DNA of 35,357 bases from a virus. Its lineage: Duplodnaviria; Caudoviricetes. Below the pieces are notes generated by a model. The model did not search any database. It was given only the letters and a program-made list of their open reading frames with translations, and was not told where the DNA came from. The translations under genes were made by a program, and so were the position numbers. Location: positions 1 through 35,357 of IMG/VR virus record IMGVR_UViG_3300032277_000036. One strand, given 5' to 3'. This document shows positions 12,462 to 35,303 of the stretch, one piece after another; the first letter of the stretch is position 1, and each line of letters starts with the position of its first letter.

Positions 12462-12487
12462 GTGGTTAGACCACAACCGAGGTGACT

Positions 12488-13060
12488 ATGGGAAAGCTGG
12501 AAAAGAAGATTGAAGAGGAACATGGTCGGACGTTGACCAACCGACAGCGCACCTTTGCGAGGCACATCGTCGAAGGGATTTACTCAAACGCAGAGGCGGC
12601 TCGAAAGGCTGGGTATTCAGCAGAAGTGGCGAACACCAGCGCGTCAAAGCTGCTCAACGGCAGAGATTATCCCCATGTTTTGGAATATGTGCAGGAGCTC
12701 CGAGAGGAGAGGCAGCGCCGTTACGGTGTCACCACTATCGGTCAGTTAGAACGGCTGTACAAGCTGTCATCTGGCGCAGAGGAGGCGGGACAGTTTTCTG
12801 CCGCCATCAATGCTGAAAAAATTCGCGCTGCGCTGGGTGGCCTCACGGTCGACCGGAGAGAAAACATAAACACCATTGATCAGATGTCACGGGACGAGAT
12901 TACAGCCCGACTTGCTGCGTTGCAGAAACAGTATCCGCAAGCCTTTGTGATCGAAGGGACAGCAAAGGACATAACACCAGATGAGCAAGGGACCGGAGGC
13001 GAACTTTTGGCAATCGATCAGGACAAATCTGCCGAGCAAGTGCTTCGCCACGAGGATTGA
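12488..13060 (+). CDS. terS: Terminase small subunit
   Basis: LTNRQRTFARHIV...SNAEAARKAGYS...ASKLL N-terminal HTH typical of Terminase_2-family TerS; AAINAEK motif. Confidence 0.82.
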   Translation: MGKLEKKIEEEHGRTLTNRQRTFARHIVEGIYSNAEAARKAGYSAEVANTSASKLLNGRDYPHVLEYVQELREERQRRYGVTTIGQLERLYKLSSGAEEAGQFSAAINAEKIRAALGGLTVDRRENINTIDQMSRDEITARLAALQKQYPQAFVIEGTAKDITPDEQGTGGELLAIDQDKSAEQVLRHED

Positions 13061-13373
13061 AAACAAGCATGGAGGGGGCGTACCGGACGTTCACGCCGTC
13101 TGGGATGGCGTTCCTTTTTGGCTCGAGCTCAAGGTAGCGAACTCCAACGCCGTCCGCGTCTCGCCTCACCAGATCGCGTGGCATATGGCTTATTGGGCTC
13201 GAGGAGGGGCAACTTTCTTCTTAGTAAAGGCCCCCTCTTTGAAGAGTATATATTTGTTTGAGGGTGACAAAGGTCCTAGTTTGCATGATCACGGGCTGTC
13301 TGGGACTGCTGGGCATAGGTTCGAGGGTTTTGGTTCGATGTTCGAGGCCCTGCGGCCCCTTGCGCAGCGATAA
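12981..13373 (+). CDS. PD-(D/E)XK nuclease (Holliday junction resolvase/VRR-NUC-like)
   Basis: E..FW...RIEN...GVPDV...FWLELK...SPHQIAWH. Confidence 0.8.
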   Translation: MSKGPEANFWQSIRTNLPSKCFATRIENKHGGGVPDVHAVWDGVPFWLELKVANSNAVRVSPHQIAWHMAYWARGGATFFLVKAPSLKSIYLFEGDKGPSLHDHGLSGTAGHRFEGFGSMFEALRPLAQR

Positions 13374-13540
13374 AGCCCTGCGGCCCCTCGCGCCGTTTTA
13401 CACCCGCGAGGCGACCGAGGAACGAGGGAGCCGAGCTCACTAAACATGTGTCGAGGAACGAGACTCAATTTAAACAAACACTTATCGAGCGACTAGCGAG
13501 ATTCATTTTAGACTAAACTTTGTCACGCGACTAGCGTGAC
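13347..13540 (+). repeat. Cluster of short repeats and mini-hairpins
   Basis: GCCCTGCGGCCCCTYGCGC at 13347 and 13375; CGAGGAACGAG at 13416 and 13452; GCGACTAGCG at 13489 and 13527. Confidence 0.75.
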
Positions 13541-13559
13541 TCCATGTATGATAGTAGTT

Positions 13560-13578
13560 GGGGGAGCCGAAGCCCCCC
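13560..13578 (-). terminator. C(UUCG)G hairpin at the end of the small-gene operon
   Basis: Minus strand GGGGGGC-TTCG-GCTCCCC right after the 13584 stop; weak U-tail; 16-nt core repeated at 14567-14582. Confidence 0.55.
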
Positions 13579-13583
13579 GTTAG

Positions 13584-13814
13584 TTACCAGTAGTTGCGTG
13601 TTGTTCTGGCTTCGGTTTCGAACATCTCCTCCGCCATGGCCTCCTCTTCCTTGTCGACGGCGCTACCGTCTGTTTGCAGGATATCTTTGAGCTCACCTCC
13701 TGACAGTCCGAGCATCCCGGCGTATGTCAGGATTGAGAGGTCAGGGTTGCTGTCGTAGTAGTCGCGGATCTCGTCGTCGGTCCATTCGAACATTGGTCTC
13801 ATGACATTCTCCAC
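13584..13814 (-). CDS. Hypothetical acidic protein
   Basis: 76-aa ORF in operon (start may be ATG 13802). Confidence 0.7.
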   Translation of the reverse strand: MENVMRPMFEWTDDEIRDYYDSNPDLSILTYAGMLGLSGGELKDILQTDGSAVDKEEEAMAEEMFETEARTTRNYW

Positions 13815-13999
13815 ACTCTAATTTTGTCATCTATGGTTCGTGCAGCGATTGTGAAACCCATACCCAATGCTGCTTTTCTCATTGACATATATTGAGATTT
13901 GTTGTCGAGGAGGACGCTGTCTCCAACGCTCATTTTGTTTAAAAGGTTTTTCCATACTGAGCGGCGTAGTGGAATTGGAATGTTCTTTTCGATTCTCAT
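13799..13999 (-). CDS. Small putative DNA-binding phage protein (MRIEKNIPIP...MSVGDSV...IRVWR)
   Basis: Recognisable IEK.IPIP / M.VGDS / RVWR motif; AGGAGG RBS. Confidence 0.75.
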   Translation of the reverse strand: MRIEKNIPIPLRRSVWKNLLNKMSVGDSVLLDNKSQYMSMRKAALGMGFTIAARTIDDKIRVWRMS

Positions 14000-14008
14000 G
14001 TTGTCCTC

Positions 14009-14206
14009 CTATTGGAACAGTGTGTCGTATTCGTGGGTTGAAAGGAAGTGTCGGAAGTTATTGTCGACACCGAGTTGGTACGCGTCCCATTCGTCACGGA
14101 ACTGCTGTGCATCGTCGCCCTGTATGAAGAACGACCAGCCTGCTTCGTACTCGCGGACCTCGACACCATAGCCGAGGTCCTTCATCTGATATCCGCCTAT
14201 GCGCAT
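14009..14206 (-). CDS. Hypothetical protein
   Basis: 65-aa ORF in operon; start uncertain. Confidence 0.65.
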   Translation of the reverse strand: MRIGGYQMKDLGYGVEVREYEAGWSFFIQGDDAQQFRDEWDAYQLGVDNNFRHFLSTHEYDTLFQ

Positions 14207-14544
14207 GGTAGCGGTTCCATGGCCCGGAGCTCACTGAGGTAGAAGTGATCGTGGTCTCCGAGGGGCATCATCTTCTCGCCACCTAGTACCAGATACTGTG
14301 CGTGATCGCGTTGTGCTACGCCCCAGTATCGATACCCGAATGTGGTGAGTATGCCGTTGATGCGCTCGCGTGTTGTGACGGTGGGCCAACCTGCGAGGGT
14401 GAAGCCGATGTCTCCGTCGAGTGTGCGCCATGCGATGCGGTTGTTGTGTAGCCAGACGATCTCGCCATTGGTGCGTGTTCGTGCTGCGTTGGCTGCGGTG
14501 CGACGGAAGAAAGCCCGTGCGATCTTGTCAGTTTCTTGTCTCAT
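14197..14544 (-). CDS. Conserved hypothetical phage protein (LHNNRIA...GWPTVTTRERIN)
   Basis: GW.T.TT.ER.N motif common in small phage proteins; AAGGA RBS. Confidence 0.75.
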   Translation of the reverse strand: MRQETDKIARAFFRRTAANAARTRTNGEIVWLHNNRIAWRTLDGDIGFTLAGWPTVTTRERINGILTTFGYRYWGVAQRDHAQYLVLGGEKMMPLGDHDHFYLSELRAMEPLPCA

Positions 14545-14564
14545 TAGATAGATCCTTTGAAGGT

Positions 14565-14584
14565 GCGGGAGCCGAAGCCCCCGC
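14565..14584 (-). other. Intercistronic C(UUCG)G hairpin
   Basis: Minus strand GCGGGGGC-TTCG-GCTCCCGC with no U-tract. Confidence 0.6.
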
Positions 14585-14592
14585 GGTTGAAG

Positions 14593-14823
14593 TTAGTCGA
14601 CTGTGACCGAGAAGGTGTTGTTGCCAAACCAGTTGGTAATCTTGTGGTCGATGTCGAACTCCTCGATCATGTCTGCAATCTCTGACGAGTGATCGTAGAT
14701 GTCGAAGGATGTGGAGTTCATACCCTCCTGAAGATCGTTGACCTTCTGCTCGATACGTTCGTCGACCTTCTCCTGAATGATTGCCATGATCAGGTCAGCT
14801 AGTTGGTTAGTTTGATTTTCCAT
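14593..14823 (-). CDS. Hypothetical acidic protein
   Basis: 76 aa, AGGAG RBS. Confidence 0.72.
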   Translation of the reverse strand: MENQTNQLADLIMAIIQEKVDERIEQKVNDLQEGMNSTSFDIYDHSSEIADMIEEFDIDHKITNWFGNNTFSVTVD

Positions 14824-14977
14824 CTGTGATCTCCTGTGTTAGATGGGCTGCTAGATTAAATGCCATGCAAGCGGCGACCATGATGTGTGCTCGGTCGCTT
14901 GCATTGTGCGCGTTGATCCACTCGAGTAGTTCGTCCCACGACTTGGGTGTGTGGAACATGCCGATTGGCTCAAGCAT
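14807..14977 (-). CDS. Hypothetical protein (MLEPIGMFHTPKSWDEL...)
   Basis: AAGGAGG RBS before ATG 14977. Confidence 0.68.
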   Translation of the reverse strand: MLEPIGMFHTPKSWDELLEWINAHNASDRAHIMVAACMAFNLAAHLTQEITDGKSN

Positions 14978-15236
14978 CAATAGATTCCTCCTTCTTGATT
15001 GTGTACTCGACGACGGTGTCAAACTTGGCGACATCGTACTTGCTGTCGTGCTGCATCGATTTGAATGCTTCTGCTAGGATCTGACGTAGATCCTTGTGCA
15101 ACTGACGCTCAGAGCTCCAGCCGTTCCACTCGGCACCGTGCTCGGTCATGAGGCGGTCGATTGTTTTGAGCTCCCGAAGTGTAAGGTTAAGGCTGATTGG
15201 TAGTTGATCGATGTCTGTATAGTTTTTAGTAGCCAT
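14970..15236 (-). CDS. Hypothetical protein, first gene downstream of the structured element
   Basis: 88 aa, strong AGGAGG RBS (15242-15247). Confidence 0.75.
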   Translation of the reverse strand: MATKNYTDIDQLPISLNLTLRELKTIDRLMTEHGAEWNGWSSERQLHKDLRQILAEAFKSMQHDSKYDVAKFDTVVEYTIKKEESIDA

Positions 15237-15257
15237 TGTGGCCTCCTATGTTTGAGT

Positions 15258-15600
15258 TACTACAACGCACATGGAACTTCGTGCATTGTCCCATCAACTA
15301 GCCGCACGTTTAATCGCGCCGAGGAACGAGGGAATCGTCAAGGGGGTTTAGCAGAGCGGCGCAAAATGTGAGATCTCAGGTTCTGATGCTACGTCATGGG
15401 CTCACTGGCACTGAGGGTGATCCTTGGCGCGAGGCACCCATGACGTTGCGTCAGGTTCTGTGATGTTGCATTTTGGGCAAACTCCCGACCCCTCACGCGC
15501 ACATAAGCGTAGCGTTGGAGCATGTGGGGTTGACGACGCATTAAACGGGATGGCCTCCCGGGGGGACAATCCGCACGGGGGTTCATGTGTGTGTGTAGTA
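15258..15600 (+). other. Large branched foldback (structured ssDNA or ncRNA), domain 1
   Basis: Nested complementary pairs: 15258-15292 with 15563-15600, 15307-15314 with 15540-15547, 15336-15341 with 15530-15535, 15342-15349 with 15479-15486, and a 39-position unbulged stem 15362-15400 with 15437-15475. Confidence 0.8.
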
Positions 15601-15605
15601 GTCTA

Positions 15606-15922
15606 GGCGCTGGCGCACTCAGGCAGGCTGACCAGCGGAAGAGGCTCCATGCACGACGAGACACCCAAGACGCGAGAACATCTGAAGGATGTTCCCGTCG
15701 CCGGGTGGATCGCCGTAGCATGGAGAGGGAGCGCAGGCCCTGACTGGGCGCATATTGGTACGGTTCCGCTGTCTCTCAGTGCGTGATCCAACGGGGCTAT
15801 AGCCGTTGGCCGACTGTCAGTTCGGAGACTGACACGGGCCGAAGGACCGTATGCGTCAAGGATCGAAGCCCGAAGGGCCAAGACCTGAAGGGGCTTGGTT
15901 CACGAGAGCCTGCCCGGACGCC
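15606..15922 (+). other. Multi-hairpin structured domain 2 with GAA/GGA triloops
   Basis: GGCAGGCT (15622-15629)/AGCCTGCC (15907-15914); CAGCGGAA (15633)/TTCCGCTG (15764); CTCCATGC (15645)/GCATGGAG (15718); GAACATCT-GAA-GGATGTTC; CCAACGG/CCGTTGG; TGTCAG..C-GGA-G..CTGACA; GCCC-GAA-GGGC; CCAAG...CTTGG. Confidence 0.75.
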
Positions 15923-16155
15923 CACCCCCCACACCCCATCGATCAAATCCCCCCACCCCCATGGCACCTCTCTAATTATTCCCACGAGCCAAGGTGCAAA
16001 GAACTACACGCAAGGTACGCAGACACTGGACAGAGATCAGAGTGACAAGGCTCTGCTTACCTGATACACAGACATACTTGCCGGGGTTACTGGAGCATAT
16101 GGTATGGCTGGCGGGGCAGACCCCCCTCCCCCCCACCCCCCTTATATGACCCCCC
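15921..16155 (-). repeat. Two C-tract clusters (G-quadruplex-capable on minus strand)
   Basis: CCCACCCCCCACACCCC...CCCCCCACCCCC (15921-15960) and CCCCCCTCCCCCCCACCCCCC...CCCCCC (16121-16155). Confidence 0.65.
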
Positions 16156-16181
16156 GTTGGTGCGGTGTGCACCCTATAATG

Positions 16182-16210
16182 TTGGTTTTGTAAATTATTT
16201 CGGGTATAAT
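16182..16210 (+). promoter_or_regulatory. Sigma70-like promoter TTGGTT-N17-TATAAT for the rightward structural arm
   Basis: Perfect -10 at 16205-16210; a second TATAAT at 16175-16180. Confidence 0.6.
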
Positions 16211-16247
16211 TCCATTGGGTTGTGTTCCAACAACAAGGAGAGTACAA

Positions 16248-16502
16248 GTGGGCCGTGATTATAGAAAAGAGTACGACAACTACCATTCGTCGCCTAAACA
16301 GAAGAAGAACCGGGCATCGAGGAACGCGGCCCGTGCTGCGATGGTTAAGTCTGGTAGGGTAAAGAAGGGTGATGGGAAGGATGTTACTCATCGGAACGGT
16401 AATCCTCGGGATAATTCTGGTGGTAATTTGGGTATATTGAGTGCGAGTAAGAACCGTAGTTTTCGTCGTACTAAGAAGGCAAGGAAGGCGCAGGTACATT
16501 GA
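16248..16502 (+). CDS. Small HNH-endonuclease-like protein
   Basis: RDYRKEY...NRASRNAAR...GDGKDVTHRNGNPRDNSGGNL...SKNRS; GTG start after AAGGAG. Confidence 0.75.
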   Translation: MGRDYRKEYDNYHSSPKQKKNRASRNAARAAMVKSGRVKKGDGKDVTHRNGNPRDNSGGNLGILSASKNRSFRRTKKARKAQVH

Positions 16503-16963
16503 GGTATGAGGTAGTAACGAGGATGACGTTGCCTATTGAGGTGGCTGTTTTACGTTTGGGTAAGTTTTCGCATCGGGAGAGTGCGTATAGTCATTTGGGT
16601 TTTAACGCGACTAAGTTGTTGAAGGAGGCCAAGTTATTTGCGACTACGGACAACCGTTTATTTATTCTTGCTTGGGATGGTGATAAGGCTGTTGGAGTGA
16701 TGGCTGCGATGGTTGCGGATTATTTTTTTAGTGATGACTTGGTAGCGAACGATTATTTGTGGTATGTTTTACCGGAGTACCGAGGATCGAAGGTTGGTTG
16801 GGAGTTATTGACGATGTATGAGCGGTGGTCCGCGGACCAAGGAACTGTTGATACTCGTGTTGGGATGACGTCTATGATTAACGCGGATGTTTTCAATGGT
16901 ATTATGGAGAAGCGTGGTTATAAGTGTATAGGCGCTAATTACCGCAAGAGGAGCCAAGCATGA
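16499..16963 (+). CDS. GNAT-family N-acyltransferase
   Basis: WYVLPEYRGSKVGWELL (acyl-CoA binding motif A) and EKRGY (motif B). Confidence 0.85.
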   Translation: MRYEVVTRMTLPIEVAVLRLGKFSHRESAYSHLGFNATKLLKEAKLFATTDNRLFILAWDGDKAVGVMAAMVADYFFSDDLVANDYLWYVLPEYRGSKVGWELLTMYERWSADQGTVDTRVGMTSMINADVFNGIMEKRGYKCIGANYRKRSQA

Positions 16964-31595: not shown

Positions 31596-31807
31596 TGGAT
31601 GTTGTCGACTTCGCAAAATATGTGTATAGGTTGTTGAGAGAGCGTGAAGAAGACATTGCTCGCTCTTTAGCCAACGGGTCTGCTAAAGACTGGGAGACCT
31701 ATAAAATGATGGTGGGAGAGATACGGGGACTCTCTTTTGCTAAAGAAGAAATGAAGTCCCTGCTGGAGAGAAACGCTGACGATGTCGAAGACCTTATATC
31801 TTCCTGA
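31595..31807 (+). CDS. Conserved hypothetical protein (YKMMVGEIRGL motif)
   Basis: 70 aa, directly upstream of GroES. Confidence 0.75.
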   Translation: MDVVDFAKYVYRLLREREEDIARSLANGSAKDWETYKMMVGEIRGLSFAKEEMKSLLERNADDVEDLISS

Positions 31808-32261
31808 TCACGTCGCGCAGAAAATAAATAAGGAAAAAAGCTCTGACACGTCAGACGGTCCTTCTTTAGAAAGCGCGTACATTAACGCTGACGAGCGGGT
31901 GTTAGATCCCTCGCTCCTCGAAAAGCCCCTTCTTGAAAGATTACCGCAGCCTACAGGATGGCGTATGCTGGTAATGCCTTATCAGGGGAAACTCAAAACA
32001 AAAGGCGGCATTCACTTACCTGACGAAGTTCGGGAAAGAGAATCTGTAGCTACGGTTGTTGCATATGTCTTGAAGCTAGGGCCGTTGGCCTATGGTGACA
32101 AAGACAAGTTTGGCGAGCCGTGGTGCAAAGAAGGACAGTGGGTTTGCATCGGTCGCTACTCAGGTTCTCGATTTAAGATCGAGGGTGGAGAGGTCCGGAT
32201 TATTAACGACGACGAAGTAATTGCAACCCTAATGGAGCCCGATGATGTCAAACATGTCTGA
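31782..32261 (+). CDS. groES: Co-chaperonin GroES-like protein
   Basis: PTGWRMLV, KTKGGIHLPD, VLKLGPLAY, GRYSG, RIINDDEVIA. Confidence 0.88.
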   Translation: MSKTLYLPDHVAQKINKEKSSDTSDGPSLESAYINADERVLDPSLLEKPLLERLPQPTGWRMLVMPYQGKLKTKGGIHLPDEVRERESVATVVAYVLKLGPLAYGDKDKFGEPWCKEGQWVCIGRYSGSRFKIEGGEVRIINDDEVIATLMEPDDVKHV

Positions 32262-35272: not shown

Positions 35273-35303
35273 GGGGCTACTTCGGTAGCCCCTTTCTTTT
35301 TTT
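35273..35303 (+). terminator. Rho-independent terminator after the MCP
   Basis: GGGGCTAC-TTCG-GTAGCCCC followed by TTTCTTTTTTT. Confidence 0.9.

Follow-up and report, generated by a model that had tools for sequence, protein, structure and literature searches.

Why would a tailed phage with a double-stranded genome keep a strongly folded stretch between its genes, and does this stretch work as RNA or as single-stranded DNA? The window analysed here, the whole record of 35,357 bases, is a fragment of such a phage. Its large terminase is closest to those of 023Pt_psg01, HTVC027P, DSL-LC04, and HTVC023P (54-60% identity), and it encodes PolA, a UvrD helicase, and its own AEP primase; the structural region also encodes a GroES-like gene and a GNAT acetyltransferase (31782-32261 and 16499-16963, respectively). 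The folded region, 15606-15922, occupies part of a spacer of 980 bases that separates a block of small leftward genes from an HNH gene read rightward (Table 1). The first-pass annotation described it as one closed domain of GNA-capped helices and proposed either a single-stranded DNA module common to conjugative elements and this phage (a single-strand origin or primosome site) or a large undescribed non-coding RNA.

All hairpins quoted in that annotation are present in the sequence, and their GNA loops are triloops kept in 3-nt register on the + strand. The UUCG loops that it ascribed to the mRNA hairpins of this phage were found as well, in register on the mRNA strand (e.g., at 35281). The region folds better than 100 of 100 shuffles on both strands, whether treated as RNA (z -4.0 on the plus and -4.5 on the minus strand) or as DNA (z -3.7 and -5.0). 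It is not protein-coding: no frame stays open across seven homologues, and ORFs 15389-15721, 15603-15881, and 15783-16064, which overlap the intergenic region, have no PHROG match. Neither the window nor four homologous loci gave an Rfam match at the gathering threshold, the only hits being chance matches (four at E 0.5-5; PAGEV, radC, and others below the gathering threshold), and no tRNA or tmRNA was found.

The single closed domain of 317 nt did not hold. Instead, hairpins follow one another along the region up to a core of 71 bases at its 3' end, and only the last 71-87 nt are widely shared. The proposed closing helix (15622-15629/15907-15914) has a pair probability of 0.81-0.97 in the DNA model and 0.31-0.39 in the RNA model; it keeps 6-7 of its 8 pairs in the three closest relatives, where it breaks without compensation, and 0-3 of 8 in the other nine. 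It competes with the covarying stem of the core for the same bases. The energy models, which were used without sheared-pair terms, prefer the closing helix and give the mispaired stem of the core a probability of 0.0 within the 317 nt. The closing helix is not conserved and is perhaps an alternative fold in the window.

Table 1. Features of the spacer and its neighbourhood (window coordinates).
Feature	Position	Strand	Remarks
Terminase small subunit	12482..13060	+	phrog_51, E 9e-16; 3.4 kb upstream of the core, same strand
Small leftward genes, no clear family	13584..15236	-	the + strand with the folds is their template
Rod-shaped DNA fold	15262..15594	+	ahead of the leftward operon; DNA fold of 15255-15590 has z -6.5
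5' arm of the closing helix of the first-pass annotation	15622..15629	+	energy-predicted, not conserved
Long interrupted hairpin, GAA cap (15684-15686)	15645..15725	+	stem sequence varies among relatives
Hairpin, 7 bp, variable loop	15788..15809	+	kept in most relatives, by eye
Hairpin, GGA triloop, one bulge	15815..15834	+	compensatory changes in related phages
GAA-triloop hairpin	15834..15850	+	directly 5' of the core; within the IncP-9 and IncN-like plasmid matches
Core element	15853..15923	+	89 bits with model R1, whose training set includes the window
HNH gene	16215..16502	+	about 290 nt 3' of the core; preceded by a conserved promoter-like stretch

Among 13 related phage spacers, the spacer is a mosaic in which modules swap while the 3' core is present in 13/13 rows, a count that is not a prevalence because the rows were picked for matching the spacer. 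Of 84 loci collected by their HNH or GNAT gene, many of them from distant phages, 12 contain the core according to model R1. In the 13 rows, compensatory changes accompany all three hairpins that could be counted: the long interrupted one (7-8 of 8 pairs kept in six rows), the GGA hairpin (5-6 of 6 pairs in 11 rows), and the GAA hairpin next to the core (5-7 of 7 pairs in 11 rows); the pair count of the 15788-15809 hairpin is spoiled by a one-column misalignment. We propose that these other hairpins, within 15606-15850, fold on the strand of the core and are a lineage-level feature.

The core consists of an outer stem followed by a stem with an A.G mispair (15862.15908) and a tandem G.A (15865-66/15904-05), which leads to a three-way junction. 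This junction joins a hairpin of 3 bp with a GAA triloop (15869-15877) to another stem containing an A.G mispair (15878-15898) and includes a linker of 4 nt (15899-15902) that is free or, in variants, replaced by a hairpin. This fold covaries strongly: in 43 rows, counted (as in model R1) with an older pairing that retains a 3-bp helix of never-varying pairs, 95.1% of 931 cells are paired and ten pairs show two-sided changes. None of 500 shuffles was as high on four of five measures, and slid controls reached 19-51%. Since the search patterns fix many letters, the never-varying pairs are uninformative; the 3-bp helix of our first fold was dropped, the variants showing the tandem G.A and a free linker.

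The loops and mispairs of the core are DNA-type. Among 211 cores, 148 loops are GNA and 41 GNNA, and 32 of these 41 break the GNRA rule of RNA. Where the letters were left unconstrained, the tandem GA/GA occurs in 125 of 126 cores and the A.G in 121 of 126. Wobble is almost absent on either strand, with G.T in 7 of 931 cells of the 43 rows (<1%). GNA loops and sheared G.A pairs are stable in DNA.

The core family is large and lies outside Rfam, with at least 211 distinct copies. Pattern scans gave at least 123 viral (estimate 160), at least 126 genome (estimate 300), and at least 124 metagenome loci (estimate 1300). The resemblance to plasmid DNA that the first-pass annotation had proposed is real: BLAST matches 865 plasmid records (best E 2e-9), and a search with the 3' end finds 886, of which 702 are typed conjugative, together with two Microviridae. 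The genome matches listed belong mostly to Alpha-, Beta-, and Gammaproteobacteria, with a few Selenomonas and Oscillibacter and one planctomycete; in the flanks of the 80 genome loci listed, where 138 proteins were scanned, genes of conjugation or of the leading region are frequent (TrbI, relaxases, ArdC, ParB, PsiA, DUF932). Model R1 has no match in phiX174, G4, M13, ColE1, or ColIb-P9 (10-55 kb), and no core was found in DSL-LC04 (12-61.5 kb) or HTVC027P (1-23 kb). Weak, diverged copies were seen in the IncP-1 plasmid R751 (one, L587:14827-14915, 14.1 bits) and in the IncW plasmid R388 (two, L588:20074 and 24080, 16.4 bits). R751 encodes its own primase. The rule that the core occurs only in plasmids without a primase was considered and is not clean, ColIb-P9 having no core (10-55 kb), R751 one weak copy, and R388 two.

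In plasmids, the core lies on the template strand of the leading-region marker genes in 54 of 56 copies, and one of the two exceptions is a member of an opposed pair; F, IncN, and IncP-9 follow the same rule. According to the available portions of PMC9849209 and PMC11541004, the leading genes in the F model are read from the transferred strand. F has two core copies on the strand that is the template of the leading genes, each 3' of one of its two Frpo units, and the IncN plasmid R46 has three diverged copies in leading-region spacers, each behind a PAS-type hairpin. The published ssiD priming fragment of F ends about 100 nt before the core, and a 1991 shotgun screen of F is said not to have reported the core site.

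In microviruses, too, the core lies on the single strand. Each of the 15 matches below E 0.05 (14 loci) among 76 microvirus loci is on the capsid-sense (virion) strand, with one minus-strand match at E 0.39, and the core is sense in loci L002, L003, and L377 too; it is located after the scaffolding gene. Across 80 microvirus genomes, 14 of 24 family-type matches lie 24-51 nt before a phiX174-nick-like motif within a hairpin, where the nick site is assigned by this motif; descriptor matches in coding DNA (two on the plus and seven on the minus strand) were set aside as chance by eye. Single-strand origins usually sit just upstream of the nick site and are exposed last on strand displacement. 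Sister genomes carry only the outer arm or another module at this position. Just 10 of 72 gokushovirus-like loci match the model, so the core is one of several modules there. At the same place behind the scaffolding gene, those gokushovirus-like genomes that have no core (within L384-L455) carry other recurring folded modules (e.g., L431, L444, L406), which are candidates for further minus-strand origins. The available part of PMC9865509 states that every microvirus probably needs a complementary-strand start site and does not certify its own candidates.

The orientation of the core to the mRNA is thus opposite in plasmids and microviruses, and in both it is the strand that enters single, which argues against RNA. 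Together with the DNA-type loops, this makes it very probable that the core works as folded single-stranded DNA. As to the module common to conjugative elements, strand logic, loop and mispair types, and placement support the claim for the core; a closed domain of the whole 317 nt is not supported.

A structured RNA, be it a non-coding RNA or part of an mRNA, in which the minus strand would form UUCG-like loops, would agree with the equally good folding of that strand, with the reverse of the C-GAA-G loop reading UUC plus G, and with the RNA-library contigs that touch the region (summed depth 2-31 against 0-89 on the flanks, from contigs of four of the six RNA runs listed, which give no strand, ends, or level). 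However, besides the orientation, the loops keep a 3-nt register, the fixed mispairs become C.U and U.C on the minus strand, wobble is almost absent from either strand, and Rfam gave no match. We consider an RNA role of the core very improbable, and the large non-coding RNA is unsupported, strand logic, loop and mispair types, and placement fitting single-stranded DNA instead.

What such a folded strand does may be approached through the phiX174-type primosome assembly site (PAS, n'-pas). A short bulged hairpin has a single copy in phiX174, at 2354 beside the annotated minus-strand origin (2308-2351), and a single copy in ColE1, at 1355 downstream of the origin, the latter being, as we assume, ssiA. 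This assignment also draws on the available part of PMC3167613. The phiX174 hairpin is kept in FL76 with a compensatory change. The three matches in phiX174, FL76, and ColE1 are not independent since the descriptor was drawn from them, whereas those beside plasmid cores are. Such a hairpin stands 5' of 48 of 344 cores, at a distance of up to 120 nt, and precedes the cores of R46, an IncN-like plasmid, NAH7, and p1215 (IncP-9 copies among them). Many of the 48 look like one related plasmid lineage and therefore represent fewer events. It is missing from the window and the other 296 cores, and none was found in F (30-70 kb). The outer arms share its bulge-and-stem form in 12 of 159 cases. Judged from the sequence, this neighbourhood appears to favour a PriA-type site.

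A descriptor of a mispair, 2 bp, and a tandem G.A gave one match at the phiX174 origin but had been written after seeing that sequence; it missed ColE1, found only background when relaxed, failed in FL76, and was dropped. A likeness to the stem of the phiX174 origin, the second beside the hairpin, is not kept in FL76. In a microvirus outside the phiX174 group (bajarodmic virus 369, L585:301-321), 21 bases identical to the phiX174 hairpin follow right after the Rep gene.

Among the known systems, the phiX174-type PAS (phiX174 F-G spacer, ColE1 ssiA), which is recognised by PriA, is a folded DNA on a single strand, as the core very probably is, and in microviruses it is likewise intergenic. The core differs from it as a larger, nested, multi-junction fold. 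The single-strand origins of rolling-circle replicons (sso, M13 minus origin, G4 oric) are comparable in position, as in microviruses the core sits on the displaced strand shortly before the probable nick site; unlike them, the core also occurs in tailed double-stranded phages. Frpo1 and Frpo2 of F and ssi1-3 of ColIb-P9 are class 1 single-strand promoters, according to the available text of PMC9849209 and PMC12672017. The F core shares their strand and repeated unit. With the F Frpo as query, F, ColIb-P9, and pKPC-LK30 were found and the window was not matched. We do not assign the core to the PAS or Frpo families. The CUP repeats of IncN pKM101/R46 are ArdK-bound regulatory repeats (Delver and Belogurov 1997, as cited in the available part of PMC6289460); R46 carries its three cores in leading-region spacers, and the fold could be mentioned in the 1997 paper, represented here by that citation. 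As far as found in the available portions of PMC11541004, bioRxiv 10.64898/2026.01.09.698686, PMC5737381, PMC7690428, and others, the core element is undescribed; work before 2000 (e.g., Masai and Arai 1997, Nomura 1991) could mention it.

In tailed phages, the core is linked to the terminase small subunit gene (terS). Of 37 copies near terS, which are not independent lineages, 35 share the sense strand of this gene; 26 precede the terS match by 141-315 nt, and nine follow it at about 3 kb. Temperate phages have three to four cores per genome, often as opposed pairs around a small gene, and 19 such pairs, with members 131-1016 nt apart, were found in the temperate loci. In several loci (L140, L141, L172, L184, L143, L188, L378:6763-7305), small variable genes have their first and last codons within the two cores of a pair, which are read in frame.

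In the window, the rod-shaped fold is a candidate single-strand promoter, and its predicted layout resembles that of an Frpo ahead of a leftward operon; a -35-like hexamer is paired within its stem, a -10 is not assigned, and the rod region has no BLAST similarity to the F Frpo. In relatives, other rods take its place. The folded block as a whole is replaceable: three relatives whose GNAT gene is 98% identical lack a core within 3.5 kb of it, and in one of them, locus L006 (2500-3500), the borders of window 13230-16130 enclose a different leftward cassette, with neither an HNH gene nor a folded block. Since the block is replaced in close relatives such as L006, the core is dispensable for the lineage and represents an accessory module.

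We suggest that the core is probably a priming signal of some kind. As the best single mechanism, a PAS-like, PriA-read start signal by which the host primes a lone strand has, in our view, about an even chance; position and neighbours make "origin or primosome site" our best guess. The core would fold only while its strand is unpaired, a host protein would read the junction and mispairs, and primer synthesis would follow, with the host priming machinery, most plausibly the PriA primosome, loading at the core to copy the lone strand. Such a signal is unexpected in a double-stranded tailed phage. In this phage, the + strand would become transiently single close to the packaging start, e.g., by end resection or strand displacement; the exposed strand may then fold the promoter-like rod for the leftward block and be primed at the core, which would serve a swappable early-gene block rather than the main origin. 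Several observations count against this reading: the phage has an AEP primase of its own; R751, with its weak copy, likewise has a primase; model R1 matches neither phiX174 nor G4, M13, ColE1, or ColIb-P9 (10-55 kb); the PAS-type hairpin is missing from the window; the lineage can do without the core; the ssiD fragment stops short of the F core, which the 1991 screen is said to have missed; and the energy models prefer the closing helix.

Perhaps the core instead presents folded single-stranded DNA to RNA polymerase or DnaG, either as an accessory part of Frpo-type units or as an sso primed without PriA. In F, each repeated unit contains a core some 100 nt 3' of its Frpo stem; judged by eye, core-like sequence forms the end of three of the Frpo* candidates of Samuel 2024, and the window has the same order of gene, rod domain, hairpins, and core. 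However, microviruses and temperate phages carry the core without a rod and with no room for one, ColIb-P9 has three Frpo-like units and no core match (10-55 kb), and the core contains no promoter boxes; this reading seems unlikely. In the supplement of PMC11541004, as far as it was available, a second module takes the position of the core behind a near-identical Frpo* unit (Frpo* 4 and 5; 5 against 6).

A role in recombination or exchange, with the core marking the borders of gene cassettes or modules, or one as a barrier (shield or roadblock) to nucleases and helicases of the host, appears to us distinctly unlikely. The 19 opposed pairs, the loci L143 and L188 with common flanks and different interiors, and the swappable block of the window agree with exchange, and ssp2 of F is a proven structural roadblock. 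Yet single copies beside the origin of 4-kb microviruses have nothing to exchange, and, compared with attC-type sites or transposon ends, the opposed pairs flank genes and show no target duplications by eye. Moreover, the two members of a pair differ in sequence and both retain the fold, as would also be expected with a priming site on each strand. That the core of tailed phages is part of a packaging signal read by terminase or HNH is scarcely probable: the terS sense strand in 35/37 copies points that way, but plasmids and microviruses carry the core without a terminase, close relatives package without it, and contig ends show no clear pile-up beside it.

Only tentatively do we extend the preferred reading, a priming signal, to one family of folded-DNA signals across F, IncN, IncW, and IncP-9 plasmids, integrative elements, microviruses, and temperate and lytic tailed phages. 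Such a family may represent the missing complementary-strand start of many microviruses and transferred plasmid strands, and in tailed marine phages it may lie beside a rod resembling a single-strand promoter, on whichever strand the genome end exposes. If so, these double-stranded phages would, on entering the cell, use a leading region in the manner of plasmids. The terS link of the core points to an unrecognised single-stranded step. Two open questions are touched here, how priming of a transferred plasmid strand takes place in the recipient and at which site complementary-strand synthesis begins in most microviruses, for which a 71-base element with a covarying fold and two copies in F gives a defined object to assay.

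Some minor features of the locus deserve mention. Between the core and the HNH gene, window 16085-16212 (+) holds a conserved G-run, a C-run, and a promoter-like stretch with two TATAAT in 13/13 aligned relatives, a possible late promoter or end signal. The minus (mRNA) strand has terminator-like hairpins with in-register UUCG loops at 13557-13580 and 14561-14585, while 13330-13560 folds no better than shuffles. Identical 13-nt hairpins with a tandem G.A and a GAA loop, at 13415 and 15319 (+), bracket the leftward gene block and are on the same strand in eight of 11 relatives scanned.
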